Source: a virus (Duplodnaviria; Caudoviricetes). Taken from it: 64,000 nt of DNA. Of the stretch, positions 1,001 through 42,890 are shown piece by piece. The DNA lies in IMG/VR virus record IMGVR_UViG_3300033062_001341, positions 16,898 to 80,897 of that record. One strand, 5' to 3'. How positions within the stretch are numbered: position 1 is the first letter of the stretch; every line of letters starts with the position of its first letter. Both the position numbers and the translations under genes were made by a program. Below the pieces are notes generated by a model, which saw only the letters and a list, made by a program, of their open reading frames with translations, made no database searches and was not told the origin of the DNA.

Positions 1001-2839
1001 TTATGAGAACGTAACGGATTGGAAGTTCTTAACAGATACTCTAATATCCTTATTAGGATATCTAATTTGATAAACCTGTGAAGGTTGTGCAAAGATTGTA
1101 TCGTCAACTGGTCTGATTAATTTTGTTTCAGGGTCAGCATAAACCATCGAGGTTTCTGCGGATGAATATTGTCCCCCAACTTCATTATAAATATCAAGAC
1201 CTGCAACTGTTAACACTCCATTTAGATTTTGAATAATGCTTCTGATTTCGGATAGATAGATATTCTGACCAAGTTGTCTTGTTTGAGGATTGAAGTATGT
1301 TGATACTGCATCGATAACAGACGAAATAATTTGACCTGAGTTTTGAGCCGCGTCTAAAACAATTGAAACATCAACACTTACATCAATTACTTCAGCGGTA
1401 AATATTGAAATGTAATCGTTCATCATTCTATAGTTAGATAGATAATTTGCAATATTTTGTTTCAAGGTATTAGATACAATATTCGTTAATTTTCCCGAAG
1501 TATCGTATGATAATATTTGAATCATTATTTTATTATCGTTTTCAGTAATAGATACTTTTGCAGGTGCTCCGAACTGAGCTGGCATGTTTCTAATAATCGA
1601 TTCGTAATCTTGGACTGTCACAGCTCTCTTTTGTGCTGAGAAGTTGAATGATACGTAGTTTCTAATTTCTTCAATTGTTGGTACACCTGCTCCACCAATA
1701 GCTGCCGTTACGTTATTACATCTCAAAGAATTAATCACCGATGAGTTAGTTGCCTCTGAAGGTCCGTTAACAAAGAATGATACAGTACCAATTTGATTGA
1801 TTACGTTCGTACCTAAGTTGGTTTGTAATCCACCTCCAACTCTATACTGAATAAACAGTGTTGAGTTTGGTGATAACGCAGCCCCTAATGAAACGTTATT
1901 AGAATATCTCTGAAGTTCTAATGTTGTTCCTAAAGTAGTGAATTGGTCTAAAGCATCTTGAGCGGTATTTGTTCCACCACCAAATGTCATTTTCTTAAAT
2001 CCTTCTGCGGTAAATTCACTGATAAATCTATCTTGTGTTTGGATATATCTACCAACTTTAATACCAGGCTGGTCTGAAACTTTTGTTGGGTCTTCAATAA
2101 AAACTCTATCTTCCGCTAAAGCATCTACCTCGTACCATCTGTTAGTCACCCCCAAAAATTCAGCTGATGTCGGTACGTTCGTGTATTCGGTTCCGTCTTT
2201 TAATAGAACACTCGTGATACCTAAAACATTCTTTTCAGGTAAAAATAATTCAAAGAATGGTTTTACGTCATTTGGTGTGATAACTCTTTTGAACACTTTG
2301 GTAATACCATTAACAACAACCTCTCTTTTTGTGATTGTGTAATTTACTAATATACCATTGGCGTTGAAGTTGGGAATCTTTAATCTGTTAGGGAAACCTT
2401 GAGCGTTATATGGTGATGTAAAATCAATATCATATTGGTTTTCGAAAACCAATCCAGCACCAATAACTTGAGACCCTCTCAACAAAGTACCAAGATATCT
2501 CTCATCCTCTTTATCACCAAATGCGGGTACTGTAATTGAGAAATCAACCAAAGAAACTGAAGGTCTTTGACCCGGTAACTTTAGACCGTATGTTCTGGCA
2601 ATGTTATAAATTGACGACTTTTGTTGAGCATACTGAAGAACTGTCTCTTGTATACTTCTATCAATGTGATAGTGTAAATTATCTGCAACAGCGGCATTCA
2701 AATCTAAGAACACTGAGAAAACTGAAGCGTCATTAAAATCCTGAATTAAGTCAGGATAGTAAGTTCTAACATAGTTTAACAGTTCGGTTCTTATTCCTTC
2801 GAAGTCTCGGGTTGTGTATGATATCTTACGATTAGCCAT
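1001..2839 (-). CDS. Baseplate wedge protein (T4 gp6 / P2 gpJ-like)
   Basis: N-terminal YTTRDFEGIRTEL, YRVGGG, AAIGGAG, RAVTVQDYE motifs typical of gp6/baseplate J; adjacent to gp25-like gene. Confidence 0.85.
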   Translation of the reverse strand: MANRKISYTTRDFEGIRTELLNYVRTYYPDLIQDFNDASVFSVFLDLNAAVADNLHYHIDRSIQETVLQYAQQKSSIYNIARTYGLKLPGQRPSVSLVDFSITVPAFGDKEDERYLGTLLRGSQVIGAGLVFENQYDIDFTSPYNAQGFPNRLKIPNFNANGILVNYTITKREVVVNGITKVFKRVITPNDVKPFFELFLPEKNVLGITSVLLKDGTEYTNVPTSAEFLGVTNRWYEVDALAEDRVFIEDPTKVSDQPGIKVGRYIQTQDRFISEFTAEGFKKMTFGGGTNTAQDALDQFTTLGTTLELQRYSNNVSLGAALSPNSTLFIQYRVGGGLQTNLGTNVINQIGTVSFFVNGPSEATNSSVINSLRCNNVTAAIGGAGVPTIEEIRNYVSFNFSAQKRAVTVQDYESIIRNMPAQFGAPAKVSITENDNKIMIQILSYDTSGKLTNIVSNTLKQNIANYLSNYRMMNDYISIFTAEVIDVSVDVSIVLDAAQNSGQIISSVIDAVSTYFNPQTRQLGQNIYLSEIRSIIQNLNGVLTVAGLDIYNEVGGQYSSAETSMVYADPETKLIRPVDDTIFAQPSQVYQIRYPNKDIRVSVKNFQSVTFS

Positions 2840-2844
2840 CTATC

Positions 2845-3315
2845 TTAAATATTGATAATTAGAAAATCACTCTGAGAAAACGTTTGGGCATTAACTGAGT
2901 AATCTATTTTTATTTTTGCAGTATATTCTGATGTTCCTTTACCGGGGAATCTGTATATTGAAGATTCACTAGTCCCAACAAAATTTTGACCCGTCGCAAT
3001 ATCAACTTCTTCTTGTGGGTCAGCCGGTGTAATTGTTATATTATTGAGTAATAGATTCGGCATAAAATTTTCAACTGCATCTCTAATATCTGATTCAATA
3101 GCATTAAAAGTAAGTCCATCAAATGGTTCAAAAAGAAATTCATACAATCTTGTACCAAATGTTGGTAAATAATATCTTGAACCCTTTCTAGTTAAAAGAA
3201 GATGTAATAGACTTGACTTAATTGCATCCCTTTGAAATTCGGTTAATCTTAAGTAATCTCCTCTTAGTGAATCCGCGAATGGAAATTCAAGACCATATGT
3301 TATACCATTTGCCAT
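2845..3315 (-). CDS. Baseplate wedge subunit / sheath initiator (T4 gp25 / GPW-like)
   Basis: IKSSLLHLLLTRKGSRYYLPTFGTRLYEFLFEP matches the gp25 family; start trimmed to MANGITYG (ATG 3315), just after a TATTTAT motif. Confidence 0.85.
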   Translation of the reverse strand: MANGITYGLEFPFADSLRGDYLRLTEFQRDAIKSSLLHLLLTRKGSRYYLPTFGTRLYEFLFEPFDGLTFNAIESDIRDAVENFMPNLLLNNITITPADPQEEVDIATGQNFVGTSESSIYRFPGKGTSEYTAKIKIDYSVNAQTFSQSDFLIINI

Positions 3316-5572: not shown

Positions 5573-6955
5573 TTAAATGGATTTTTGCTGAGCTTCTCTT
5601 TCTTTTCTTTTCTCGAGAAGTTCTTTGACTCTGTCCCTTTTTCTTTCCTCTTGTTGTCCCTCAAAACCTAAGAATGTAACTGAGGATTCTGTATCTATTT
5701 CAAGAAGTTCATTGTTAAACTTGCAATTTTCGAAGACAACTCCATCTTTACCAAGACGTGATTTTGTGATGGCTATCGTTGCTAAATTCATTTCTTTTTG
5801 TTGTAATGACTTAGCCACAGTAATGATTACGTGTCCTACTTGAGCCTTTTTGATTGAACCACCCATTTGGTCTGTAGTAACAACCTCAGATGAGATTGAG
5901 CTTCTATTACCTTGAGTTGCTGTCCATCCAGCAAGATTCAACTCGTGACACATACCTTCAAAGCCTCTCATTACAGAACCTTCAGCTTTCCACTCATCCT
6001 TAGCACTTGATTCAGGGAGAACACAATCAATATAATCCAATAGAATCATATCAATCTTTGTACCATCAGCAATAATTTTTCTAACTTGATTCTTGATTTG
6101 ATTCATAGTCATACTGTCAGAAGCCAACTTCTTCAAGATTAACTCATTCTTCATCGTCTCTTTAATCTCAGTTATCTTACTCATTACAACGTCTTTATGA
6201 AGAACCAAATTATCTGGTTCAATCCCTGTCCACATTGTAAAATGTTTTCTTTGAATAATCTTTGGGTTGTCCTCAAAAAATATTTGAAGAACGTTATAAC
6301 CCATATTAAATGCTGTGTTAGCAATCTTACATAAAACTGTGGTTTTACCAACCCCCGTAGGAGCCAATATAACCCCAATCTCACCCTTTGCAAGTCCACC
6401 CTTAAGTAGTTTGTCAATTCCACTGATACCCATTGGAATAGGGTGTCTGTAGTCTTCGTCGAGAACTGTGTCCAAGTTATCGAAAACATCTGTCTGACCT
6501 TTCTCAACTTCACCTACTTGTAGTGCCTCTCTGATAAGACCTTCCACCTTGTCGTAAGATTCAAAGTCACCTTCAGTAATAATCTTTTGTGATTTGTCCA
6601 TCGCCTTCTGTAACTCTTGTTGTTTACAGAATTTTAATGCCTTCTCTTGAACAAAAGATGTTCCCTCAAACGGAGCATCTTTTACTTGTTTAAGTGTATC
6701 CAAAACAATCTTGGCAACAAGTTCTTGGGGTATTTCGGATTTCACAATCTGCTCTAGGGTATCAAAAGTAGGTGTCGACTCATACTTTATATGATACTCT
6801 TTAATCATCTGTATAATGATTTTAAAATACTTGTTGTCGAAGTATGAACTCTCGATAACATCCATAATTGAATGTGAAAAATCCTTATCGACAACTATTT
6901 GGTTGAGTAATTGTATCTGAAATGTATTCCCTAAATAATCAAAATTCTTGTTCAT
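5573..6955 (-). CDS. Replicative DnaB-like helicase (T4 gp41-like)
   Basis: Walker A APTGVGKT, Walker B ILLDYID, TATQGNR, ITKSRLG. Confidence 0.9.
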   Translation of the reverse strand: MNKNFDYLGNTFQIQLLNQIVVDKDFSHSIMDVIESSYFDNKYFKIIIQMIKEYHIKYESTPTFDTLEQIVKSEIPQELVAKIVLDTLKQVKDAPFEGTSFVQEKALKFCKQQELQKAMDKSQKIITEGDFESYDKVEGLIREALQVGEVEKGQTDVFDNLDTVLDEDYRHPIPMGISGIDKLLKGGLAKGEIGVILAPTGVGKTTVLCKIANTAFNMGYNVLQIFFEDNPKIIQRKHFTMWTGIEPDNLVLHKDVVMSKITEIKETMKNELILKKLASDSMTMNQIKNQVRKIIADGTKIDMILLDYIDCVLPESSAKDEWKAEGSVMRGFEGMCHELNLAGWTATQGNRSSISSEVVTTDQMGGSIKKAQVGHVIITVAKSLQQKEMNLATIAITKSRLGKDGVVFENCKFNNELLEIDTESSVTFLGFEGQQEERKRDRVKELLEKRKEREAQQKSI

Positions 6956-28770: not shown

Positions 28771-31700
28771 TTAGATATTTTCAAACGAAGCTCCTGTTGG
28801 AGTGATGAAGAATTCTATGTCGATGAATTCTAAAGCCTTCGTAGGTTTTAAGTAAATCTTACCTGTAAGTGTGTTTCTGTCTAAGTCTTCAGGAGAAGAT
28901 GAAACTGTTACACGGAAATCGTATAAACCTCTGTCTCTTCTGATAGAGTCTAAGATTGGGTTAACACTGTCTAAGAATTGTTGTCTAACGATTTGGTCGT
29001 TTTGTTCGAACAATAATCTTACAGCCACCGCTGAAATTAACTTACGAGCTTGTAACAATAATCTTCTAACATTCAATCTGTTAAGAGCTGTGTCAGCAAC
29101 TTGTAAAGTTTTGTTACCAAAGATTACTGTTCCAACATCAGAGAAAGTTGCGATAGGGTTGATTCTACCTTGATATAATGTATCTCTATCTTCTTGAGTT
29201 AGTTTTTGTCTAGCTTTGATTGAGTTTACAAGACCTCTTGTGTAACCCGCTGATGCGAACCAAGGAAATGAAATATTATCTGTTAGAGCTAAGTTTCTAC
29301 AAACTTCACCTGTTGGTGGTAAGTAGATTTGTGTATTGTTAACCGTATCTCTTGTTAAAATCCAAGGATAGTAAGTTGCTGTGTAGTTAGAATCAATTCC
29401 TGTGTTATCTAAGTTATCAACCGCTTCTTGAGAATAAATTACTAACTCTGGATTATTAGCATCCGGTAAGTTCAAACGATAGTCAGGAGTTGTTACGATA
29501 TAAACCGAATCAGCTCTTGAGTATTGAATCATATCAATAGCTTCTTCACATAAGTTAGAGTTATTAATATAGTCGATACTTGCAGTTGCAAATACGTTAA
29601 TATTTGTAGATTCAGGGTTTGCGTAAGTAAGAATACCAAGTAAGTAAGCGTAGTAGTCCGTGTTTGCAAAATCTTGTGTGTTATTTTGAACAACAATTCT
29701 TTTGAATAAACCTTCTCCTGTTGCGTTTGGATATCTTGATGAAGGAGATGAACCTGCTAAGTAACCGTTAGCACCTAGTTGGAATCTATCTTCATTTGTT
29801 CTACGTTCGTTATAGATATCCCAACCATCAAATCCACCCGCAAAACATACTGTGTATTTTCTTGCATAAATGAAGTAATAAGGATTTTCTTGAAATTCTG
29901 GGTCCGTTCTGAAATCAGCATCTCCACATTCAAACGCTGTTTGACCACTTGTTTGGAAAGAGGTAGCGATTGTTACAACTGTAGCACCTGAGTCCATATG
30001 GAAACCTTTACTTACAACGTTCCAAGGAGCCCCTTCTTGAAGTGGGTCATTAATCCAATTCGGTGGGTTTTGTTTTCCTTTGTATTGTAAGAAAGCCTCA
30101 TCAACACCATATTGTGTTGAGAAACCTAAATAACTTCTTCTTACAATATCTCCAGCAGATTCTGTATTAGTTAAATTACCAAAAAACGGAGGATTTGCAA
30201 TTGTTTCGCCAGGGAAGAAATACTTTGTTTTATATTGTATGTAAGGTGATGGATACTCAGAAACATTAAAATACTCTCTTTGAGTATATCCACGGAACCC
30301 ACAAGGTATTGCATCTATTGGAGCTGTTGGTGACATTTCAACCATTACGTATTTTGAAAGTAACGCATATTCACCGTTTGATGTACCAATCTTAACACCA
30401 ATAAAGTTGTTAGATAATGGGTCCAAATTACAATTAGTGAATTTTTCAATCACAACAGGACTAGCATCTGTATCGAAGAAATTTCTAACTAATACATCGA
30501 AAGACATATTGTTGAAAGAAAGATTTGCAATAGAAACTTTAACTTCGGTGTTTGCTGCATTTCCATCAGATATTGAAATGAATTTAAATAAATCATAAAC
30601 CTTATTACCTCTTAACTCAGATACTAAGAACGGAGTTTCAGGTGATTGATATCTCTCTAAGTTATACGCAATCGACGTACCACTTTGACTTCTAGCATCA
30701 GGTAAATCAATTAGATTACAATTGATTCCTTTGATATACCCCTGAGAATAAGCAATATTTAAAGACGATTGATAAGACTCTTCCACAAACACAGGAACCG
30801 TAAATCTTGATTTACCAAAATTATCAACACCAAATACTTTTGTAAGATATTTTGAAGAAGAAGCCAATAATGATGTTTCAAATTGGAATGTGTTGTTATC
30901 GTCAGTAACACCTGAGATTAAGAATGTACCGTAAGGGTCTTTACTTACACCAGAATAAGCTCCATCGCAAACCATGGTTAAACCTGTAGTTTGATAGATA
31001 GGTCCGTGATTTTCAGAAGCCGAACTATTAGTAAATAAAGCAATACCTCTTGAACGTAAAGTTGCAACAACCATGTTGTTATATTCACTGTACGCAGTTC
31101 CTGAGAATGAATATGTATTACCAGATATTGTACCTGTAACCACATCACCGTTAATCGATAAAGTATTAACAATATAATCAAAAGAATAACCCGAATAGTT
31201 ATCACCTGTATAATTTTCGAAGTTAGCATAATACCAAGCATCATTAGAACCTGAACTTAAATCGTTGTACTCAATCTCTCCATCTCCCGGAACATCATAA
31301 ACGTTTTTCAGATTACTATATTGATTAACCAACGAATACCAATCTTCAGAAGGTATTGAACCGTATATTACTGAAGTATTAGCAGACAATGTTGTTGAAT
31401 CAGCTATTTGACTAATGTAAGTGTTGAAATCATCTTGTAATGTTGAAGTACTCCCATCACTTAATCTGTATTGAACATTTAAGTTAGTTTCAACTTGTGA
31501 AGGTAATTCTGTTGTGTCTAAGAAAACAATTGTATTTCCAGACGCAGTACCTGTAAATGTTGCAGTGAATGGTGTTGCTGCTGAAGACGATGTAAACCCA
31601 ATTGTTAAAGGGTCAACATTCGCGGTTACAGATATACTCCAAGATGGACCCGCATCATATCCTGATAAACCTAATACTCTTGTAACGAATAATTGGTTCG

Positions 31701-31971
31701 ATTGTTGTAAATAAGATTTTGCAATATATGCCGCCTCATACTTAGGGATTTGTGTGTTCACGAATTTCACAGGTTCTGTACCACCGAAATAGGCTTGGAA
31801 CTCATCATAGTTAGTTATAAAAATTGGTTCGAAAGCGGGGCCTTTTATAGTTTCCCCAACCACACCTAAAGTTGTTACACCCACGCTTTGGGCTACGAAC
31901 GATAAGTCCGTTTCAGAAGTGTATACACCAGGTGAAACGTACACCTTTTTGTTTGCTTGTGCTGTTGCCAT
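28771..31971 (-). CDS. Contractile tail sheath protein (gp18-like)
   Basis: VSPGVYTSETDLS N-terminus; WFASAGYTRG, LYQGRINPI, GNKTLQ, LNVRRLL, KPTKALEFIDIEF C-terminus. Confidence 0.95.
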   Translation of the reverse strand: MATAQANKKVYVSPGVYTSETDLSFVAQSVGVTTLGVVGETIKGPAFEPIFITNYDEFQAYFGGTEPVKFVNTQIPKYEAAYIAKSYLQQSNQLFVTRVLGLSGYDAGPSWSISVTANVDPLTIGFTSSSAATPFTATFTGTASGNTIVFLDTTELPSQVETNLNVQYRLSDGSTSTLQDDFNTYISQIADSTTLSANTSVIYGSIPSEDWYSLVNQYSNLKNVYDVPGDGEIEYNDLSSGSNDAWYYANFENYTGDNYSGYSFDYIVNTLSINGDVVTGTISGNTYSFSGTAYSEYNNMVVATLRSRGIALFTNSSASENHGPIYQTTGLTMVCDGAYSGVSKDPYGTFLISGVTDDNNTFQFETSLLASSSKYLTKVFGVDNFGKSRFTVPVFVEESYQSSLNIAYSQGYIKGINCNLIDLPDARSQSGTSIAYNLERYQSPETPFLVSELRGNKVYDLFKFISISDGNAANTEVKVSIANLSFNNMSFDVLVRNFFDTDASPVVIEKFTNCNLDPLSNNFIGVKIGTSNGEYALLSKYVMVEMSPTAPIDAIPCGFRGYTQREYFNVSEYPSPYIQYKTKYFFPGETIANPPFFGNLTNTESAGDIVRRSYLGFSTQYGVDEAFLQYKGKQNPPNWINDPLQEGAPWNVVSKGFHMDSGATVVTIATSFQTSGQTAFECGDADFRTDPEFQENPYYFIYARKYTVCFAGGFDGWDIYNERRTNEDRFQLGANGYLAGSSPSSRYPNATGEGLFKRIVVQNNTQDFANTDYYAYLLGILTYANPESTNINVFATASIDYINNSNLCEEAIDMIQYSRADSVYIVTTPDYRLNLPDANNPELVIYSQEAVDNLDNTGIDSNYTATYYPWILTRDTVNNTQIYLPPTGEVCRNLALTDNISFPWFASAGYTRGLVNSIKARQKLTQEDRDTLYQGRINPIATFSDVGTVIFGNKTLQVADTALNRLNVRRLLLQARKLISAVAVRLLFEQNDQIVRQQFLDSVNPILDSIRRDRGLYDFRVTVSSSPEDLDRNTLTGKIYLKPTKALEFIDIEFFITPTGASFENI

Positions 31972-33290: not shown

Positions 33291-33802
33291 TATATTCCTC
33301 TAAATTCATTTTCACTTACGAAAGTAGCCATAATTGTTCTATAGAACGGTTTATATCCACCATAAGTATGTTTATTGTCTGACCTGACATATCCGTCATC
33401 AGCCACAACATAATATCTAACCCTGTCTTCTGTCTCATAATATCCGATATAATCCCCTTGGAATATTTCAATCCCTAAATCCTCAAGAGTTTTTTGATAT
33501 ATTGAAAACTTCATATTACCAGGCTCTTGTAACTCGACTTTTGAGTTACCAATAAGTTTGTGTTGTGGTGCCATGATTTGAACTAACCCTTTCAACTCAA
33601 CAGGAGCTAAGAATTGTATACCGTCTTCCAACACCTCACCATAAACATCATCCGTTTTGGTTTTGTATCTATCAACTCTATAAAGAATAATTGTAAAGTT
33701 CATATCACCTAACAACCACTCCTCACCCATACCAATATCCAACGTATAATCCTCTCCACCGAAGAACTTACCTAAACGAGTAATAGGGACTAATTTTTCC
33801 AT
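33290..33802 (-). CDS. Neck / head-closure protein (T4 gp14-like)
   Basis: DDVYGE, GDYIGY; start trimmed to MEKLVP (ATG 33802). Confidence 0.6.
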   Translation of the reverse strand: MEKLVPITRLGKFFGGEDYTLDIGMGEEWLLGDMNFTIILYRVDRYKTKTDDVYGEVLEDGIQFLAPVELKGLVQIMAPQHKLIGNSKVELQEPGNMKFSIYQKTLEDLGIEIFQGDYIGYYETEDRVRYYVVADDGYVRSDNKHTYGGYKPFYRTIMATFVSENEFRGI

Positions 33803-33848
33803 ATTGATAAATACTTTAATTATAATTATATTTAAAGTAAAATTTTTT

Positions 33849-34247
33849 ATGAGGATAAATCCACCAACCAAAATCTATGTTGAAAGTAGTCCAATTCACG
33901 GACTTGGCGTTTTTGCGTCTGAAGATATTAACGAAGGAGAAATCTTGGAAGTCTGCCCCGTTATTGATATGGGTATGAGATTTGGTGACAATAGTCACAT
34001 ATTAATTGATTATAGGTTTAATTGGCCTCAAGGGGGAAATCCTTGGGAAAAACAAGTGGTGTCAACAGGATTTGCATTACTTTATAACCACAGTAGTACC
34101 CCAAACGCTGCGTGGAGGTCTAATCTTGAAAACAACACATTTGAATTTTATTCTATAAAAAATATAAAAGCGGGAGAAGAAGTCTTCGTATGGTATGGTG
34201 ATATCAACTATTGGAATGACGGAAGAACTCACACAAACGTTGTATAA
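33849..34247 (+). CDS. SET-domain protein-lysine methyltransferase 1 (vSET-like)
   Basis: SPIHGLGVFA, YNHSSTPN, IKAGEEVFVWYG; start trimmed to MRINPP. Confidence 0.88.
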   Translation: MRINPPTKIYVESSPIHGLGVFASEDINEGEILEVCPVIDMGMRFGDNSHILIDYRFNWPQGGNPWEKQVVSTGFALLYNHSSTPNAAWRSNLENNTFEFYSIKNIKAGEEVFVWYGDINYWNDGRTHTNVV

Positions 34248-34618
34248 TGAATATGAAAATTACCCCTCCATTAAAAATATATCTCAAGGATAGTCCTTTA
34301 CATAACTTAGGTGTTTTTTCTTCACAAAAAATTGAAAAGGGTGAAGTTATAGACATATGTCCTTTCATATCTTTTCCGCAAAGTTCTAAAGAAAAAATAC
34401 CCGTTTTTTCAAACTATGCATTTTGTTATCCTCGTTCTGAGAATTGGACAACACATGCATTAGTTTTGGGATATGGTTCATACTATAACCATTCTGAGAC
34501 ACCGAGTGTTGATTGGAATACCAACGAAAATGACCGAACGTTCATCTTCTTTGCAATAAGAGATATTGATGAAGGTGAAGAATTATTCATAAACTATGGT
34601 AACGGAAGTAATTTTTAA
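34247..34618 (+). CDS. SET-domain protein-lysine methyltransferase 2
   Basis: SPLHNLGVFS, YNHSETPS, IDEGEELFINYG; TAATG stop/start overlap with SET1. Confidence 0.85.
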   Translation: MNMKITPPLKIYLKDSPLHNLGVFSSQKIEKGEVIDICPFISFPQSSKEKIPVFSNYAFCYPRSENWTTHALVLGYGSYYNHSETPSVDWNTNENDRTFIFFAIRDIDEGEELFINYGNGSNF

Positions 34619-34619
34619 G

Positions 34620-36371
34620 ATGGAAGCGAGTTTAGAATCAAAAGCAATGTCTTTATTGGAATCTTATGAAGGTGCTAATAACTACCTCATTGAGCTTAAG
34701 AGGAAATCTCAACTAAATAAAAAGTTTTATCCAACAAGAAGTCAGTCCGAATATATTATAAACAATCACGACAAAACACCTAAGGTTGCTAAGAAGTGGG
34801 TGATACTCGATGCTTATTTTGCACAAAGATTGGCTGACGATAAATTATACACCACAATACCTGAAAAAGTTTGGGTAGAGAAATTACTTGCGGACAAAGA
34901 AAAAGCGTTTCATATTTGGGGGAAAGTTTTTGAGAACGAGGAACTACATGACTTTTGGTTACCTAAAGCCGCTGTGATTAAAGATAACACAGTAAAAGAT
35001 GTTCTTATCAACTATGAAAAATATTCTAAACGACCTCCACTATCTCATCAAAAAGAGGCAATCCAAAAGCTCGTTGAGAACAAGAAATATATTTTGGCTG
35101 ATGATATGGGTCTTGGTAAGACAACCTCAACTATCATAGCCGCTCTCGAAAGCGGTGCCAAAAAGATATTAATTATATGTCCTGCGAGTTTGAAGATAAA
35201 CTGGCAAAGGGAGATTGAAAACTACACAGACAGAATCGTTTATATTTCTGAAGGAAAGAACTTCAGTAAAGAACACGACTTCGTTATTATTAATTACGAT
35301 ATTATAAAAAATTTTCACAGTGTTAAAAAGAAATCTGAATCGCAAATTCTTGACTCCAATTTTGATTTGGTGGTTGTTGACGAAGCACACTATATTAAGA
35401 ACGGTCAAGCACAAAGAACAAAACTAATTAACGACCTTGTGAAGAAAGTTGATAGACTTTGGTTGTTGACAGGTACACCAATGACCTCCAGACCAATGGA
35501 CTATTTCAATCTTTTAAGTTTGGTTGACTCACCTGTTGCGAAAAACTGGATGGCATACGCAATCAGATATTGTAGTGGATATCAATTCAATGCTGGTGGT
35601 AGAAAGATATGGAATGTTACGGGTGCCAGTAATCTTGAAGAACTAAGAGACAGAACCGCGGGTCTTACTTTAAGACGATTAAAAGAAGACGTTTTAGATT
35701 TACCTGATAAGATTATCACACCAGTATATCTTAGACTGAAATCCAAAGCATACGAGGAGATTATGGGTGAATACTATGATTGGTACGACAAGAATCCCGA
35801 CGAATCCAAATCACTCACAGTTCAGTTTACAAAGTTAACTAAGATACGACAAGTAATTGCCGATGAGAAAATTACCCAAACAATTGAACTTGCCGAGAAT
35901 ATTATCGAACAAGGAAAAAAGGTTATCATATTCTGTAACTTCACTGACTCACTATCTAAGATATGTGAACACTTCGGAAAGACGGCCGTTAGAGTCGACG
36001 GTTCAACGCCAAAACACGAAAGACAAAACGCTGTTGACCAATTTCAAGACAGTGAAAAAATTAAAGTGTTTGTTGGTAACATTAAAGCGGCAGGTGTTGG
36101 TCTAACATTAACCGCTGCTGAAGTAGTAATCTTTAATGACTTATCTTTTTTACCTTCAGATATGGCTCAGGCGGAAGATAGGGCATATCGATACGGTCAA
36201 AAAAATAATGTGTTAGTTTATTATCCAATATTCGATAACACTATTGAAGGTATAATCTATGATATTGTCAACGCTAAGAAAAAAGTCATAGCAACAGTAA
36301 TGGGTGATAATCAAAACCCGTCAGATACCGCTGAAGAAATTTTAAATAAGATTAACAAACTAAGAAAATAA
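34620..36371 (+). CDS. SNF2-family helicase (SMARCAL1/HARP-like)
   Basis: LADDMGLGKT, VVVDEAH, LTGTP, LRRLKEDV, QAEDRAYRYGQ; start trimmed to MEASLE. Confidence 0.9.
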   Translation: MEASLESKAMSLLESYEGANNYLIELKRKSQLNKKFYPTRSQSEYIINNHDKTPKVAKKWVILDAYFAQRLADDKLYTTIPEKVWVEKLLADKEKAFHIWGKVFENEELHDFWLPKAAVIKDNTVKDVLINYEKYSKRPPLSHQKEAIQKLVENKKYILADDMGLGKTTSTIIAALESGAKKILIICPASLKINWQREIENYTDRIVYISEGKNFSKEHDFVIINYDIIKNFHSVKKKSESQILDSNFDLVVVDEAHYIKNGQAQRTKLINDLVKKVDRLWLLTGTPMTSRPMDYFNLLSLVDSPVAKNWMAYAIRYCSGYQFNAGGRKIWNVTGASNLEELRDRTAGLTLRRLKEDVLDLPDKIITPVYLRLKSKAYEEIMGEYYDWYDKNPDESKSLTVQFTKLTKIRQVIADEKITQTIELAENIIEQGKKVIIFCNFTDSLSKICEHFGKTAVRVDGSTPKHERQNAVDQFQDSEKIKVFVGNIKAAGVGLTLTAAEVVIFNDLSFLPSDMAQAEDRAYRYGQKNNVLVYYPIFDNTIEGIIYDIVNAKKKVIATVMGDNQNPSDTAEEILNKINKLRK

Positions 36372-36395
36372 ATTTTTTTGTGGTATTTATAATAG

Positions 36396-37070
36396 ATGAC
36401 AGAGCACAAAATATGTAGTAAATGTTCAATTCTTAAATCGTCTGATGATTTTTATAAAAATAAAAATTCAAAAGATGGGTTAAGGTCAAGTTGTATTAAA
36501 TGTGGTAATGATTATAAGTCATCTAATGAAAGTAAAATTAAAGAACAGATTAAAGAATATAATAAAAAAAGAAAAGAACAAAAAAAGGAATGGGCTAACA
36601 AAAATAAAACTAAAGTTAATGAAAGTCGAAAAAAGTGGTTATTAGATAATAAAGAACAAAGGTCTGATTATTTAAAAATATACAATAAAAAATATTACGA
36701 TGAAAATAAAATAATTCGTTTAGAATATTCCAAACAAAAACAAAAAGAGTATCGTAAAATAAATCCACTATACAGAATAAAATCAAACTTAAGAAGAAGA
36801 ATAAATAGATACTTAAAATCTAAATCAAAATCAACTGAGGATATATTGGGGATAACTTATTTAAATTTTATATTATATCTCGAAAATAAATTCACAGAAG
36901 GAATGACTTTAGATAAATTAGGAAAAGATATCCATATAGACCACATAACCCCATTATCGTCCGCAAAAACAGAAGAAGAAATTTATAAATTATGCCATTA
37001 TACAAATCTACAACCACTATGGGCGAAAGATAATTTGGTAAAATCAAACAAACCGGATTATTTATTATAA
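36396..37070 (+). CDS. Free-standing HNH endonuclease with N-terminal CxxC...CxxC
   Basis: CSKC/CIKC; HIDHITPL...LCHYTNLQPLWAKDNLVKSN. Confidence 0.75.
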   Translation: MTEHKICSKCSILKSSDDFYKNKNSKDGLRSSCIKCGNDYKSSNESKIKEQIKEYNKKRKEQKKEWANKNKTKVNESRKKWLLDNKEQRSDYLKIYNKKYYDENKIIRLEYSKQKQKEYRKINPLYRIKSNLRRRINRYLKSKSKSTEDILGITYLNFILYLENKFTEGMTLDKLGKDIHIDHITPLSSAKTEEEIYKLCHYTNLQPLWAKDNLVKSNKPDYLL

Positions 37071-37084
37071 GATAGTCCAATAAT

Positions 37085-38623
37085 ATGAACAAAATAGAAA
37101 AGAAGATTCAACTTACGGAAAACAAGATACTCGAATCAAAAGTTGAAGAACAAGCCAATCAGTTAATTACTGAAATGAAAAAAATTGGAATAGAAAAATT
37201 ACCCTATTCCTACTCAGCCCTCAAACAATTCATTGATGCAGAAACAATGAACTTTCACTACAACAAACACTATAAAGGTTATGTAGACAAGTTAAACAGT
37301 GCATTATCAAAGAAAGAATACGGGGATGTAGAGCTAGAACAAATTATCAAAACGATAAGTAGGTTCGATAAGTCAATAAGAAACAACGCAGGTGGGGCAT
37401 TTAACCACGCTTTGTTTTGGAATATGTTGACCCCAACTCCAAAGAAATTAGAAGGCGACCTTTACAAGAAAATCATAAAAGACTTTGGTAGTTTTCCCGC
37501 ATTTAAGAAAAAGTTCGAAGCTGTTGCCAAAGATAGATTTGGTTCGGGTTGGGTATGGTTGGTGTTAACAACAAGAAATACTTTGAAAATAATGTCGACA
37601 CCTAATCAAGACAATCCATTGATGAATGTTATTGAAGGGGGTGGGTTTCCTCTTTTAGGTTTGGACTTATGGGAACACGCATATTATCTAAAGTATAGAA
37701 ATAAAAGAGACGAATATATTGCAAACTTTTGGAAAGTTGTGAATTGGGATTTTGTGACTAAGATGTACGAAATGAAGACTAAGACAAAATTGGCCGAGTC
37801 TGCACAATTAAAACAACTTATGTCTGAAGCAAAATCTGAAGCATGCTCACCTGAAGAAACCGATTTTTATAGAAAAATATTCAATACTCATAAGGAAATT
37901 GAAACAAAATATAGAGCAGGTATTGAAAGAATATTAATTGAAGTGTTCAGTGACTTGTATGTTGATAATCCACCAGAAGGTGAATTACCGGGAATATTCA
38001 ATTTAGAAAGTGAAGGAAGGTCCGTTATTAACAAATTGAACACAAACTATACAACATTCTGTATCTTACTTAACGACATCAATCAAGTAATAAAAACAAT
38101 TGATGGTAAAAAACCAATTGTGTTTAAAGGTAAAACACCTAAAGAACAAGTTAAAGAAGTTGAAAGATTTGTTAATGCGTTAGACTATTTCAAATATAGA
38201 ATTTTTGACACCAAGAGTTCGACCTTTGTAAACATAATGAAGACTCTCGAAGATAAAAATGCAATGGGTGATAAAAGAGAAGAAGTCACGGCAGCAATAT
38301 TGAGAAGATTTTTTGGTAAAGATGTCAAAATAGAACAAGTTGGTAAGTTAGGTAGTAAAGAAGATGCGTTATCAGGAATAGATTTGAAGTTAACAAGTGG
38401 AGGTAAAACAGAAACGGCACAAGTCAAACCATTCAAAGTTAAAATTGTTGATGAAAAAAAAGGAACTATTATCCTTCTTGGTACAGGTAAAGTTAAACCA
38501 TACTATACCGATTTATTGATTTTCCAAAAAGGAAAAAACGTTTTGGTGTTTAATCAAAAACCTAAAATTATTGGGGGTAACTATGTATTTACAATTGATG
38601 CCTTGAAGCTAAATATAGAATAA
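37085..38623 (+). CDS. sodA: Mn/Fe superoxide dismutase fused to a ~270 aa C-terminal nuclease-like domain
   Basis: HYNKH, NNAGGAFNHALFW, FGSGW, NQDNP, DLWEHAYYL; C-terminal GID...QVK. Confidence 0.88.
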   Translation: MNKIEKKIQLTENKILESKVEEQANQLITEMKKIGIEKLPYSYSALKQFIDAETMNFHYNKHYKGYVDKLNSALSKKEYGDVELEQIIKTISRFDKSIRNNAGGAFNHALFWNMLTPTPKKLEGDLYKKIIKDFGSFPAFKKKFEAVAKDRFGSGWVWLVLTTRNTLKIMSTPNQDNPLMNVIEGGGFPLLGLDLWEHAYYLKYRNKRDEYIANFWKVVNWDFVTKMYEMKTKTKLAESAQLKQLMSEAKSEACSPEETDFYRKIFNTHKEIETKYRAGIERILIEVFSDLYVDNPPEGELPGIFNLESEGRSVINKLNTNYTTFCILLNDINQVIKTIDGKKPIVFKGKTPKEQVKEVERFVNALDYFKYRIFDTKSSTFVNIMKTLEDKNAMGDKREEVTAAILRRFFGKDVKIEQVGKLGSKEDALSGIDLKLTSGGKTETAQVKPFKVKIVDEKKGTIILLGTGKVKPYYTDLLIFQKGKNVLVFNQKPKIIGGNYVFTIDALKLNIE

Positions 38624-38647
38624 ACCTTTTCAATATATTTATTAGAT

Positions 38648-39775
38648 ATGTCAGTAATTCCAGAACCAGAAAGGTCGAAAATATACACTAGAGTCAAACA
38701 CTTATTAGGTGCTCCTTTAAGAAGTGTTGAGGTAGAAGATGAAATGATGGATTCACTTATGGAACTATCTATTCAAGATTATGAAGAATACATTCTTCAG
38801 TGGTTAATTGATAGTCAATGGGTTAACTTAGTTAATCTTAACATGAGTGAAAAATCTGTTGCTAAAGCTCTTGTTACTAGAACAATGGATTTTGAACAAC
38901 AATTCGCATATTCATATTCTAAAATCGTAGGACTTCAAACAATGGGTCCTTGGGTTTTAAAGAAAGATTATTTCATACTTGAAAAAAATAGACAAAACTA
39001 CGAAATTCCTGCGGGTCGTGAGGTTAATGAACTTTTATGGTTTAGTAATCAACCATGGAACGCATTTGGATTAGGTGGTGTTGGTGGATTTGGTATGGGT
39101 GGTATTGGATTAGGTGCCAGTGAAGCAGGTTATGCTCAAATGGGATACCAAGGTTCTTATTTTATGATGTCAGGTTTTGATTATCTAATAAGAATGCAAG
39201 AGGCGAATATCCTTAATAGAATTTTGGGTGGTTCATTAACTTATAGAATAACAGGATTACCTGATGGTAAAAAGAATGTTTTCTTATACAATACACCAGG
39301 AGGAAGATTCAACTGGAATCAATATAGTGATTACGAAGGAAAAGCTGTTTGGTATTGGTATTATGACGTAGGTCCTGATGATAGAGCCGCTTGTTTAAAG
39401 GCAAATAAAGACATTATCAAACTACCAACAGACGTACCATTAGAAGAGCTCACTTGGGAAGAATTAAACGTTCCTGGTAAACAATGGGTTAGAAGATGGT
39501 TCACCGCATATGTTAAAGAAACATTAGCAAGAGTAAGAGGAAAGTATAGTGGAAATTTAAAAACACCAGACTCTGAAATTACTATGGATTATACAAGTTT
39601 ATTAACCGAAGCGAAAGATGAAAAATCTAAATTGTTAGAAGAACTAATAGGAGCTGAAGGTTGGTTAACAAGATTGAGACCTGAAAAAGTAATGGAAAGA
39701 GAAGCATCAATTGCTGAAAACTTAAACAAACAAATGAAATTTAGAGCAATGCCTCGTCAAATTTACGTAATCTAA
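38648..39775 (+). CDS. Neck / head-tail adaptor (T4 gp13-like)
   Basis: RVKHLLGAPLRSVEVEDEMMDSLMELSIQDY; KETLARVRGKY. Confidence 0.75.
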   Translation: MSVIPEPERSKIYTRVKHLLGAPLRSVEVEDEMMDSLMELSIQDYEEYILQWLIDSQWVNLVNLNMSEKSVAKALVTRTMDFEQQFAYSYSKIVGLQTMGPWVLKKDYFILEKNRQNYEIPAGREVNELLWFSNQPWNAFGLGGVGGFGMGGIGLGASEAGYAQMGYQGSYFMMSGFDYLIRMQEANILNRILGGSLTYRITGLPDGKKNVFLYNTPGGRFNWNQYSDYEGKAVWYWYYDVGPDDRAACLKANKDIIKLPTDVPLEELTWEELNVPGKQWVRRWFTAYVKETLARVRGKYSGNLKTPDSEITMDYTSLLTEAKDEKSKLLEELIGAEGWLTRLRPEKVMEREASIAENLNKQMKFRAMPRQIYVI

Positions 39776-39779
39776 TTTT

Positions 39780-40115
39780 ATGGCAATAGTAAAAACAATA
39801 CCTTCGAGAAGAATTATAAACGGGATGCAAATCACAACATCCGAAATCTCAGTGGTTTCCGAATTAGATTATCGTACAAACGGTGAATCGTGTGTTATTG
39901 TAACTGGTATACCTTTTTCAGTTGTTATACTTGATTCACGAACAACTGACCATGTCGTAGTCAAGTCTATGACACAACTCACAATCAGACCCGACACGGG
40001 TAAGATTGATGAGGATTACGATGAAATAGTAATGGACAGATATGCCTGTGTTGAATTTAGATTTGTCGGTGGTACTTGGTATATCTTATCAAGCGATGGT
40101 TTGAAAAACTCCTAA
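39780..40115 (+). CDS. Hypothetical beta-rich protein, possibly virion
   Basis: 111 aa, follows gp13-like gene. Confidence 0.5.
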   Translation: MAIVKTIPSRRIINGMQITTSEISVVSELDYRTNGESCVIVTGIPFSVVILDSRTTDHVVVKSMTQLTIRPDTGKIDEDYDEIVMDRYACVEFRFVGGTWYILSSDGLKNS

Positions 40116-42890
40116 TTTCTCTTCCCACCCTTCTTCAGCTAAGTCGTACATGTAATCAGGTTTCAGACCTCTTTTTTCCCAATAACGTAATTCGGCCTCA
40201 GTGATATCCATAACGTCTTTTTGTAAGTCGTCTTGGTCACCCTCACCTAATGGATGTCCATTTATTAATTCACATTGTGATGTTGTAAAAATTCCTCTAT
40301 CTAAAGGATTATCAACAATTAAATTATTTCTAACCTCATCTTGAAACACTACCATTAACGGCTCGATTCTTTTATTGAATGTTGTTATTGCTCTTGGAAC
40401 ATTATAATCACCTGTTAAGTCGGGGTCTTTATCCAAAATATCTTTATCTAACATATAACAATTAATCATAACACCGTCGGTGATTGGTTTCGCTTTAGGG
40501 TCATTAAATTGATTAACTAAGTTGGTGTCTTTAATTTGTTTCGCTGTCATCTTCTGAACGTCTCCCTGAGACGCTTTGGTCCCGTTATTAACATACAGAA
40601 TAACATCTCCCAAATTCACATTTAATTTTTCTCTGATGGCCAATTCCATATGAGCCATTCTACTCATACTATTACCTGCCTTGGTTTTAGTATTTAATCT
40701 TTTCTCATAATCCTCAAGGGTTAGCTTAACCTTCGCTCTTTGAGCAATCTTACTCAACGGAATTTTCTTATCATAAATCATTTGGAGATACTCATAATAA
40801 TATTCTACGAATGCCTTACCATTACCTTCTAATAACATCTTAACACCTTTATCCAAAAACGTCTCGATATACAACGGAAGTTTTTTAGACTTAATACTAT
40901 TACCTGTTAGTTTAATTTTACCCTTGGCATCCATAACCGCATAGTTCTTACGAGCCAAGTTAATACAAGACGGCCACACCCCATCGGTATCGAGAGCCAT
41001 CTCACCTCTCATAAAGATATCATTATACTCCGCAACATCTGCCTCAGGACCATAATACTCCTTACCCAACTCAACCTTCCAATTCAATCCACGACCAACG
41101 TAAACTCTGTCTTTGGCGTCATCAGGAGTGGAGAAGTTCACACCATCCGTATCCATTACCAAAGGGACATAACCTTTGGTCATAAAAAACTTAATCATCT
41201 GACGAAGGTATTGTCTACCTGTACAAGTGATTTGTTCTCCCATATACATATCACCCCACGCATACACCTGAGGCGCAGACAAAGCTCCGAACATCGAGTT
41301 AATAAAAATCTTAATCGGTAATTGTTTATTACCATATGATTCGGACTTCTTACGGTCGATGTTATAAAACTCTTCAGCAAGTTGTTTGTATTTGATACGG
41401 GTGTTACGGAAATAACTTAACATACCTTTCATCGCACCTGTTACATCACAGTCGGGGAATACATCGTGTACGAGCTGAATAGAGGGGTATAGAGACGAGA
41501 AGTCAAGTTTAAGTACGTTCTTACTATAACCAACCTTAAGTAGTCGAGAAAGACCTCCTACGAAGTCTGTCTTGGATTCCTTGGCTGGTATTGCAAGTCC
41601 GTGTTTATGGGACCACGCCAACATCAACATCTTCCATAGTGTTGCGGTACCCATTGTGGATACTCTCTCATAAGTTGTTGGAATCATTGCAGCAAGTAAA
41701 AATGAACCCTGATTAAATTCTTGGTCAACCTTTAAAGTTTCATCTAAGTCATCATCAAGATATCTCTCAACAATATTATCTCCTGTTGTTTTAATATAAA
41801 CGTCAGTTCTCTTTTCACAAATCTCATCAATCTTTGGGTCAAACTTTGCTTTTCTGTAATTACCATTTTGTATATTCAACCAATAATCCTCTTTATTTGT
41901 ATACATTTTTCCAATGTTCTCGTGGTCGATATAAACACGGTCAGGAGCCTCAGCATTAATAAACTTTGTAATATACTTCAAACCCGCAGCTTTGATACTT
42001 GAGTTAATTGCTTGAGCTCTACGAACTGCGTGAATAATATCAATTACGTTATAACCCCAAATGGATGTCTGAACATATTCTTCTACCTCATTTGCAAGTT
42101 TCAACATACTATCTTTTCTTGTGAATGAATGTTCGGGATGTAATGACTTACATATCTTCTTCGGGTCAATACCTAAGATTCTACATCTTTCAAATATCCA
42201 ATGCCAGTCGAAGTTCGCTGAGTTATACCCACCAATAATACTTGGTTTTATTTCATTAATAATATTAAAGAATTCTATGATGGCACCCATCTCTTGGGAC
42301 TCATCCATACATTCGATAACCTTGTGGTAACCCTTATTTGTTTTAATTCCAATCATGAAGATACGACCGTCCTTTGGTTCAAGAGCAGTCGTTTCCAAGT
42401 CATACACAAGTCGAGTCACTTCTTCATAGTTTTCAAAACCTTTGAATAGTCTTTTTTCTTTGGAAATCAAATATTGTTCTACAGGAGGTAGAATCATAAC
42501 TTTATCCTTTGTCCTATCACCCCACGGGTCACAACCACCGTCTCTGAAGAACTGAATAAGTTCTCTATAACCTTTAAGAGATTTAACCATATAGGTCATA
42601 CCTTTCTCTAATCTCTCGTTACCGTGTGTTTCTAATTTGTCTATGACGATACCGTGTTTGGTCATCGCCTCTTTTTGTAATGCTTTAGAATCATTATAGA
42701 ACTTAATACCACGTAAATCACCTACCCACGCAAATGGTGTGAACGTATCTTTACGTATTTCTTTTCCTTTACCAGGGATTTCTTTGATTTTGTAAATGCA
42801 GTTTTCGCGATAGTCGTACTCGATGGCGACAATAAACTCTTCGGGGTCGTTTCCGTGTAAAAACGATTCAATCTCTTCGTCAGATATCAT
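40089..42890 (-). CDS. Family B DNA polymerase with 3'-5' exonuclease
   Basis: YDLETT, YNSANFD, DFSSLYPS, KIFINSMFG, MDTDG. Confidence 0.95.
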   Translation of the reverse strand: MISDEEIESFLHGNDPEEFIVAIEYDYRENCIYKIKEIPGKGKEIRKDTFTPFAWVGDLRGIKFYNDSKALQKEAMTKHGIVIDKLETHGNERLEKGMTYMVKSLKGYRELIQFFRDGGCDPWGDRTKDKVMILPPVEQYLISKEKRLFKGFENYEEVTRLVYDLETTALEPKDGRIFMIGIKTNKGYHKVIECMDESQEMGAIIEFFNIINEIKPSIIGGYNSANFDWHWIFERCRILGIDPKKICKSLHPEHSFTRKDSMLKLANEVEEYVQTSIWGYNVIDIIHAVRRAQAINSSIKAAGLKYITKFINAEAPDRVYIDHENIGKMYTNKEDYWLNIQNGNYRKAKFDPKIDEICEKRTDVYIKTTGDNIVERYLDDDLDETLKVDQEFNQGSFLLAAMIPTTYERVSTMGTATLWKMLMLAWSHKHGLAIPAKESKTDFVGGLSRLLKVGYSKNVLKLDFSSLYPSIQLVHDVFPDCDVTGAMKGMLSYFRNTRIKYKQLAEEFYNIDRKKSESYGNKQLPIKIFINSMFGALSAPQVYAWGDMYMGEQITCTGRQYLRQMIKFFMTKGYVPLVMDTDGVNFSTPDDAKDRVYVGRGLNWKVELGKEYYGPEADVAEYNDIFMRGEMALDTDGVWPSCINLARKNYAVMDAKGKIKLTGNSIKSKKLPLYIETFLDKGVKMLLEGNGKAFVEYYYEYLQMIYDKKIPLSKIAQRAKVKLTLEDYEKRLNTKTKAGNSMSRMAHMELAIREKLNVNLGDVILYVNNGTKASQGDVQKMTAKQIKDTNLVNQFNDPKAKPITDGVMINCYMLDKDILDKDPDLTGDYNVPRAITTFNKRIEPLMVVFQDEVRNNLIVDNPLDRGIFTTSQCELINGHPLGEGDQDDLQKDVMDITEAELRYWEKRGLKPDYMYDLAEEGWEEKLGVFQTIA

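Follow-up and report, generated by a model that had tools for sequence, protein, structure and literature searches.

Two short genes encoding SET-domain proteins, here termed SET1 and SET2, lie end to end immediately upstream of a gene for an SNF2-family helicase in a 64-kb window (the whole stretch of DNA analysed here) of the IMG/VR viral record IMGVR_UViG_3300033062_001341, which represents a large freshwater phage. This arrangement raises the question of whether the SETs and the helicase work as one unit. An adjacency of two chromatin-associated domains is easily over-read, and in this case it does not make a chromatin module. From the comparisons presented below, it seems probable that the SETs are optional lysine methyltransferase cassettes resembling the chlorella virus enzyme vSET, which are carried behind a host-type promoter and act independently of SNF2.

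The SET genes occupy a hypervariable cassette site

The initial annotation described two compact SET paralogues of 132 and 123 residues, followed 1 nucleotide (nt) later by SNF2. The reading frames and junctions are as described (Table 1) and the domains are confirmed by Pfam. Both SETs match the SET profile (PF00856; cut-off 22.4 bits) over its full length, SET1 with E 5.6e-15 and 56.1 bits and SET2 with E 1.5e-16 and 61.1 bits, and they are 39% identical to each other (BLASTP E 3e-35). The downstream protein matches SNF2-rel_dom (PF00176, E 2e-30) and Helicase_C (PF00271, E 8e-20), and its translation contains a Walker A motif (DDMGLGKT) and a DEAH box (VVDEAH). The SNF2 start at 34620 (MEASLE), one base after the SET2 stop codon, agrees with the orthologues better than the longer reading frame from 34596. 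The order SET1–SET2–SNF2–HNH–SOD recurs on contigs of three further assemblies (JGI 3300032328, Logan ERR2848559 and ENA ERZ21844512), so the arrangement in the window is not an assembly chimera. The TAATG overlap reported for the SET1/SET2 junction, in which the SET1 TAA stop and the SET2 ATG have one A in common, is present in the sequence, but the true start of SET2 may be the second ATG at 34253, which gives a protein of 121 residues; stand-alone SET2 orthologues begin MKI.... With this start there would be no overlap, and a 5-nt spacer (TGAAT) would follow SET1, as between SET1 and SNF2 in relatives that carry SET1 only.

Conservation of the arrangement was followed in three samples, obtained with SET1 (80 viral contigs), SET2 (17 clear relatives) or SNF2 as query. 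The last of these, which we regard as the unbiased test, was made up of the 80 best contigs out of at least 600, their SNF2 being 83–97% identical. With SET1 as the query, the synteny of the window was retained in 64 of the 80 contigs: the sheath gene is followed by genes for 346- and 170-residue proteins on the minus strand and then by SET and SNF2 on the plus strand. SNF2 began 5 nt after the SET1 stop codon in all 61 syntenic loci with enough downstream sequence. The closest SET1 relatives (85–96% identical in SET1) are without SET2, and 16 of the 80 loci belong to different phages with no adjoining SNF2. With SET2 as the query, SET2 stood alone before SNF2 in 14 of the 17 relatives, and the order SET2–SET1–SNF2, the reverse of that in the window, was found in the other three. 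In the SNF2-anchored sample the slot was empty in 46 of 80 contigs, with 54–105 nt from the 170-residue gene to SNF2. Filled slots held the SET1 type only (17/80), the SET2 type only (10/80) or two SETs (2/80), and an unrelated minus-strand open reading frame (ORF) of about 107 codons occupied the slot in five contigs. The SETs are thus located at a hypervariable cassette site, which is empty or contains either SET type alone, both types (in either order) or an unrelated gene, and which is a general hot spot for accessory genes. The slot is at the start of an operon whose first gene, in most relatives, is SNF2. In the tandem SET1–SET2 pair, two cassettes that are otherwise alternatives occur together, which is rare. 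Since each SET type occurs alone before SNF2 in relatives, the heterodimer suggested in the initial annotation is unlikely in an obligate form.

The SNF2 protein is conserved within the range given above regardless of SET presence, and some copies next to an empty slot are 92% identical. Over its first ~1400 nt, the window SNF2 gene shows 89–99% nucleotide identity to SET1-only relatives and 73–86% to SET2-only relatives, a pattern which shows that SET2 entered as a clean cassette between SET1 and SNF2 of a SET1-only lineage.

These distributions bear directly on the functional coupling that had been proposed between the SETs and SNF2, namely a chromatin-like module. In such a module the SETs would methylate SNF2 or a nucleoid protein, on which the ATPase would act in turn. 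In its favour, SET abuts SNF2 in all SET-bearing members of the clade with a spacer of 1–5 nt, permitting translational coupling, and the N-terminal 140 residues of SNF2 carry no assigned domain. However, the two genes do not co-occur as such a module would demand. Most relatives have no SET in the slot, including some with 92% identical SNF2, and hence SNF2 functions without SET. Moreover, no SNF2 was found within 5 kb of bacterial SET homologues at 80 loci, and none adjoins the SET1 homologue of a 735-kb phage or those of the different phages mentioned above. In the synteny comparison that had been suggested as a check, SET and SNF2 are therefore largely unlinked. Sequence comparison indicates that their adjacency is one inherited insertion site in one phage clade and counts as one event. 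The helicase itself belongs to the ubiquitous phrog_62 ('DNA helicase', E 4e-120), with tblastn matches in 2177 phage records; it is an ordinary, common phage helicase and a conserved neighbour of the SETs, not a dependent partner. A chromatin-like module is accordingly very improbable.

Table 1. Features of the window discussed in the text (aa, amino acids)
Feature	Position	Strand	Description
Tail sheath gene	28771..31971		1066-aa ORF; matches phrog_23, E 8e-54
Promoter-like element	33804..33832	+	TTGATA-17 nt-TATATT, host-type; within the 46-nt divergent intergenic region (33803-33848), ahead of the first plus-strand gene of the operon
SET1	33849..34247	+	132-aa minimal SET-domain protein, predicted S-adenosylmethionine (SAM)-dependent protein-lysine methyltransferase; C-terminal YWNDGRxH tail
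SET2	34247..34618	+	123-aa minimal SET paralogue; HNLG for HGLG, without YWNDGR tail, C-terminus ...NYGNGSNF
SNF2-family helicase	34620..36371	+	583 aa; N-terminal region of ~140 aa without assigned domain, then ATPase core
HNH/endonuclease VII-like gene	36396..37070	+	phrog_1035, E 3.5e-20
Family-B DNA polymerase	40089..42890

Motifs, fold and constraint of the two SET types

SET1 carries the motifs HGLG, YNHSSTPN and GEEVFVWY. The corresponding motifs of SET2 are HNLG, YNHSETPS and GEELFINY, so that the first Gly of GxG is lost. With one Cys in SET1, two in SET2 and no pre-SET or post-SET Cys cluster, both proteins fall within the minimal vSET-like subgroup, which is distinguished by a bare SET core of ~120–135 residues without Cys or Zn clusters. 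The retention of NHS and GEE..xY, the missing post-SET cluster and the HNLG of SET2 had all been noted correctly in the initial annotation. In 18 diverse sequences drawn from both types, the invariant residues include G20, N80, H81, E111 and Y116 (SET1 numbering), and N81, H82, E112 and Y117 are invariant in an alignment of 17 SET2-type sequences. The NH and catalytic Tyr residues are constant in all three alignments compared. HNLG is confined to a SET2-type subclade at least 75% identical to the window copy, and remoter SET2-type proteins have HGLG; as judged from this alignment, HNLG is a derived state. The YWNDGRxH tail is also missing from the SET2 type, although an invariant Phe at the end of these proteins lines up with the Trp in the YW motif of SET1. 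Two regions which form the substrate groove in SET enzymes, the SET-I segment and the C-terminal flank, are conserved inside each type and different between types. Because these groove-forming regions differ, the SET1 and SET2 types probably have different targets or sites.

In sequence searches the nearest solved structures for both SETs are Set7 (5h6z; E 3e-12 with SET1), vSET (1n3j; E 1e-11 with SET1) and PFL0690c (4rz0; E 5.5e-10). The catalytic Tyr of vSET, Y105 (PMC3914023), aligns with Y116 of SET1 and Y117 of SET2. An AlphaFold2 model of SET1 (pLDDT 87, pTM 0.81) gave 372 Foldseek matches at E<=1e-3, which were all SET or PR domains among the matches listed; the top PDB matches were 4rz0, 3kma and 5h6z, each with a probability of 1.00. 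The vSET-like character originally assigned to the pair is thus borne out by sequence and, for SET1, by the predicted fold. Confidence in the SET2 model is low (pLDDT 65; below 50 for residues 42–74), and the assignment of SET2 is made from its sequence.

The closest known counterpart is vSET (A612L of Paramecium bursaria chlorella virus 1; 1n3j/2g46/3kma), which is likewise encoded by a virus, consists of a bare core of ~120 residues and shares the GxG, NHS and catalytic Tyr motifs as well as the lack of pre-SET and post-SET zinc clusters. The predicted SET1 fold matches it with a Foldseek probability of 1.00 and TM scores of 0.68 (model) and 0.85 (target) at 30% identity. Unlike vSET, SET1 has the additional YWNDGRxH tail, and whereas vSET comes from a virus of a eukaryotic alga, which has histone H3, the presumed bacterial host of the phage would offer no H3K27 target. 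Set7 of Schizosaccharomyces pombe and PFL0690c of Plasmodium falciparum are of the same minimal class (Foldseek E 3e-9 to 5e-8; 28–33% identical), but as eukaryotic nuclear proteins described as histone methyltransferases they provide no parallel to a phage accessory cassette. Among viral proteins, the best structural match of the SET1 model is A0A6J5L8Y2, a UniProt entry annotated as a SET protein and derived from an uncultured phage of the Caudovirales (TM 0.82 and 0.84, 39% identity); in contrast to that protein, two divergent types stand here in tandem within a replication-gene operon. SET proteins have therefore already been annotated in uncultured phages, and full-text literature searches found no paper on a characterised phage SET enzyme.

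Bacterial and archaeal minimal SETs (those of Saprospiraceae, Lewinellaceae and Bacillaceae, Go1-SET of Methanosarcina mazei and the chlamydial SET) are stand-alone proteins of ~125–165 residues. The closest chromosomal relatives of SET1 are found in Saprospiraceae, Lewinellaceae and Chitinophagales (41–44% identical over SET1 residues 9–131), with Bacillaceae next, and the Saprospiraceae and Lewinellaceae proteins resemble SET1 including its C-terminal tail. Unlike the phage genes, the bacterial ones are chromosomal and single-copy, lie outside a variable cassette site and have no SNF2 neighbour. Go1-SET methylates MC1-alpha, and the characterised minimal prokaryotic SETs act on DNA-binding proteins of their own cell (PMC3980110).

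A profile of both SET types retrieved 6576 representative clusters at E<=1e-3, and the SET1 type alone comprises 475 clusters at 90% identity. The family is abundant in uncultured freshwater phages, and the nearest ESM Atlas clusters are ~90% viral (Uroviricota). A phylogenetic comparison with vSET and bacterial SETs had been suggested, and the bacterial part of it is provided by a low-resolution FastTree tree of phage SETs together with metagenomic and bacterial genome sequences. In this tree the SET2-type sequences cluster as a single clade (support 99). Both types fall in a group with unnamed metagenomic sequences (support 92), separate from almost all of the bacterial genome sequences included. 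By these sequence criteria, SET1 and SET2 represent separate types, anciently diverged, of a minimal vSET-like family that is carried by phages.

Tandem pairs of mini-SETs are a recurring arrangement outside phages. Five bacterial proteins of 260–300 residues (P0168, P0176, P0179, P0188 and P0239) are SET–SET fusions with two minimal domains, the first copy in P0168 having NSS in place of NHS, and in a Bacteroidetes metagenome-assembled genome (L240:4932-5783) two SET genes lie side by side, 3 nt apart. These fusions and pairs fit the dimeric working unit of vSET, which is described as a homodimer (PMC3914023, citing Wei and Zhou 2010), and a facultative SET1–SET2 heterodimer therefore stays plausible.

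Median pairwise dN/dS was 0.21 for SET1 (n=56) and 0.12 for SET2 (n=20), compared with 0.05 for SNF2 and ~0.09 for the flanking genes. Such values indicate that both SETs are selected, functional proteins under purifying selection, SET1 being somewhat less constrained. Taken with the motifs, they are very likely to be active mini-SET lysine methyltransferases, and methylation of a non-histone target is a reasonable reading of the sequences. It could be argued that SET2 is instead a non-catalytic pseudo-enzyme which serves only as heterodimer partner or regulator of SET1. The HNLG motif, the lost YWNDGR tail and the low-confidence model over residues 42–74 would accord with such a role, as would the vSET homodimer and the bacterial fusions and pairs, some of which have one degenerate copy (NSS in P0168). 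However, SET2 stands alone before SNF2 in 14 SET2-anchored and 10 SNF2-anchored contigs, its dN/dS is low and the NH, EE and catalytic Tyr residues are invariant. Furthermore, the remoter SET2-type proteins keep HGLG, and the conserved terminal Phe takes the place of the SET1 Trp. We therefore consider a pseudo-enzyme quite improbable.

Promoter-like element and candidate targets

The promoter-like element upstream of SET1 is the top consensus match in positions 33500–40200 (10 of 12 positions). All relatives inspected retain the block ATTGATAAATAC...TATATTT, whichever of SET1, SET2 or SNF2 comes first. The element is also readable as a Bacteroidota-type promoter, ATTG-N20-TAnnTTT(A/G) (here ATTG-N20-TAtaTTTa). 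We infer that host RNA polymerase transcribes the operon, and hence that expression is early or middle. A Shine-Dalgarno sequence is lacking, and the leader has very little length. Within the promoter-like block, ATAAATA (reverse complement TATTTAT) is located 4 nt ahead of the start codon (ATG) of the minus-strand 170-residue gene, and the 46-nt intergenic region may serve both strands. The motif TTGATAAATA was considered as a recurrent promoter class and rejected, as it is not over-represented in the window (26 matches vs 20.5 expected).

Under the interpretation of the SETs as optional, SNF2-independent cassettes, the first product of the host-RNA-polymerase transcript would be a SET, made early. 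By analogy with vSET, each SET enzyme would work on its own, probably as a homodimer, and would use SAM to methylate lysines in its target protein, with no need for SNF2. The target may be a host protein such as a nucleoid-associated, transcription or translation factor, the SET being an optional accessory for host takeover or counter-defence. A host protein methylated early in infection is the target class that we prefer, although tentatively and with less than even confidence; methylation of a phage protein is the main alternative and a rather unlikely one.

It is also conceivable, although somewhat unlikely, that the mini-SETs are interchangeable effector cassettes, the types methylating different host proteins (nucleoid, transcription, translation or defence) for takeover, so that a phage with two types would hit two targets or form a heterodimer of new specificity. 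If true, this would be the first demonstrated case of a bacteriophage deploying a protein-lysine methylation system against its host. The natural series of empty, SET1, SET2 and double slots in otherwise 85–97% identical surroundings is a ready comparison for target finding by methyl-lysine proteomics.

The contexts of SET1 homologues in other large phages, which are either a replication cluster or glycan/methyltransferase clusters, are relevant to the choice between host and phage targets. The replication cluster contains a DnaB-like helicase, an SF2 helicase and a predicted polymerase, which was recognised by inspection and has no match in Pfam. In the modification clusters the homologues are 57–63% identical and the SET gene lies at ~6001–6400 of the loci L079, L082, L062/L064 and L055. 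Its neighbours are a GlcNAc-transferase (PF11397), HtrL_YibB and Methyltransf_24 in L079, a hexapeptide acyltransferase and FkbM in L082, WavE in L062 and Methyltransf_24 in L055. In L055 the next gene encodes a 1557-residue protein with a CHU_C type IX secretion signal. The CHU_C domain is typical of Bacteroidota, and this neighbour hints at Bacteroidota as the host phylum.

Such clusters, together with fusions of the type GT9+FkbM+SET (P0172) and Methyltransf_24+SET (P0185), would be expected if the SETs belonged to a decoration toolkit that also includes glycosyltransferases and class I methyltransferases, and methylated phage proteins, structural or otherwise; PhyH is also found fused to two SET domains. 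However, accessory islands can gather unrelated genes with no functional link, and in the clade of the window one host-type promoter precedes both the SETs and a replication gene, and not a virion operon. Moreover, Lys makes up 0.5–1.7% of the Thr/Pro-rich, mucin-like virion proteins encoded in the window and is nearly absent from their repeats, and the repeat regions were therefore rejected as SET targets. Involvement in decoration thus seems fairly unlikely.

Several observations weigh against the interpretation of the SETs as optional, early-expressed methyltransferase cassettes. The total of promoter-consensus matches in this AT-rich region is no higher than in shuffled sequence, and both the promoter role and the early timing derive entirely from the consensus match and its conservation. 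SET2 has Asn for the first Gly of the SAM-binding GxG motif, a shortened C-terminus and a low-confidence model, and may be a weak or non-catalytic partner. CheckV puts the completeness of the 80.9-kb record at 26%, from which the full genome is probably ~300 kb. Profile searches of this 26%-complete record gave no match for HU (PF00216) or the histone fold (PF00808), and HU is likewise missing from five larger related records. A search of the same record for a candidate demethylase gave no match for Cupin_8 (PF13621). PhyH (PF05721) also had no match there, but as the PhyH control matched none of 14 control genomes, this negative carries no information. Finally, the slot may understate how constant SET function is across the clade, given that a 183-kb relative with an empty slot carries a divergent SET-like gene elsewhere (L268, G003:C1:104349-107684). 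This gene encodes 145 residues, matches Pfam SET with E 1.9e-6 and has INSG in place of NHS. It follows a gene for a protein with three Hint-like repeats and precedes two ORFs that resemble 2OG-Fe(II) oxygenases by eye, and the locus may be another protein-modification cluster.

Neighbouring genes and mobile elements

The window, with a GC content of ~34%, belongs to a contractile-tailed phage, as indicated by the sheath gene (Table 1). The nearest cultured phages are distant, the top matches of the DNA polymerase being ~24% identical. The window contains no tRNA genes, which thus give no hint of the host. PADLOC and NCBIfam searches gave no match for SET1 or SET2. A defence role was considered for SNF2 and rejected, because its matches to ZorD, DpdE and DrmD span the generic core only and are far under the cut-offs (PADLOC, NCBIfam equivalogs). 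The minus-strand ORF that replaces SET in five relatives (MKMSQEQIERAINKMINVIK...) is located at ~2610–3000 in each of L115, L123, L128, L130 and L176.

The HNH/endonuclease VII-like gene that follows SNF2 is sporadic in relatives. One relative only (L026) has a copy at the same place, 83% identical, and the gene shows 71.5% nucleotide identity to HNH genes of Baltic Flavobacterium phages. The 3' end of the window SNF2 gene (~330 nt, 36045–36371) is 71–81% identical to relatives that match it at 89–99% upstream. This divergence next to the HNH gene looks like a co-conversion tract from homing. In a further relative (L036:6405-9263), the SNF2 gene has an in-frame insert of ~346 codons inside Walker A (DDMGLGK, then ALES...VTHN, then TTST). 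The insert contains the LAGLIDADG-like motifs LLGLLIGDGG and LQGLMDTDGF, and its most likely identity is an intein that carries a homing endonuclease.

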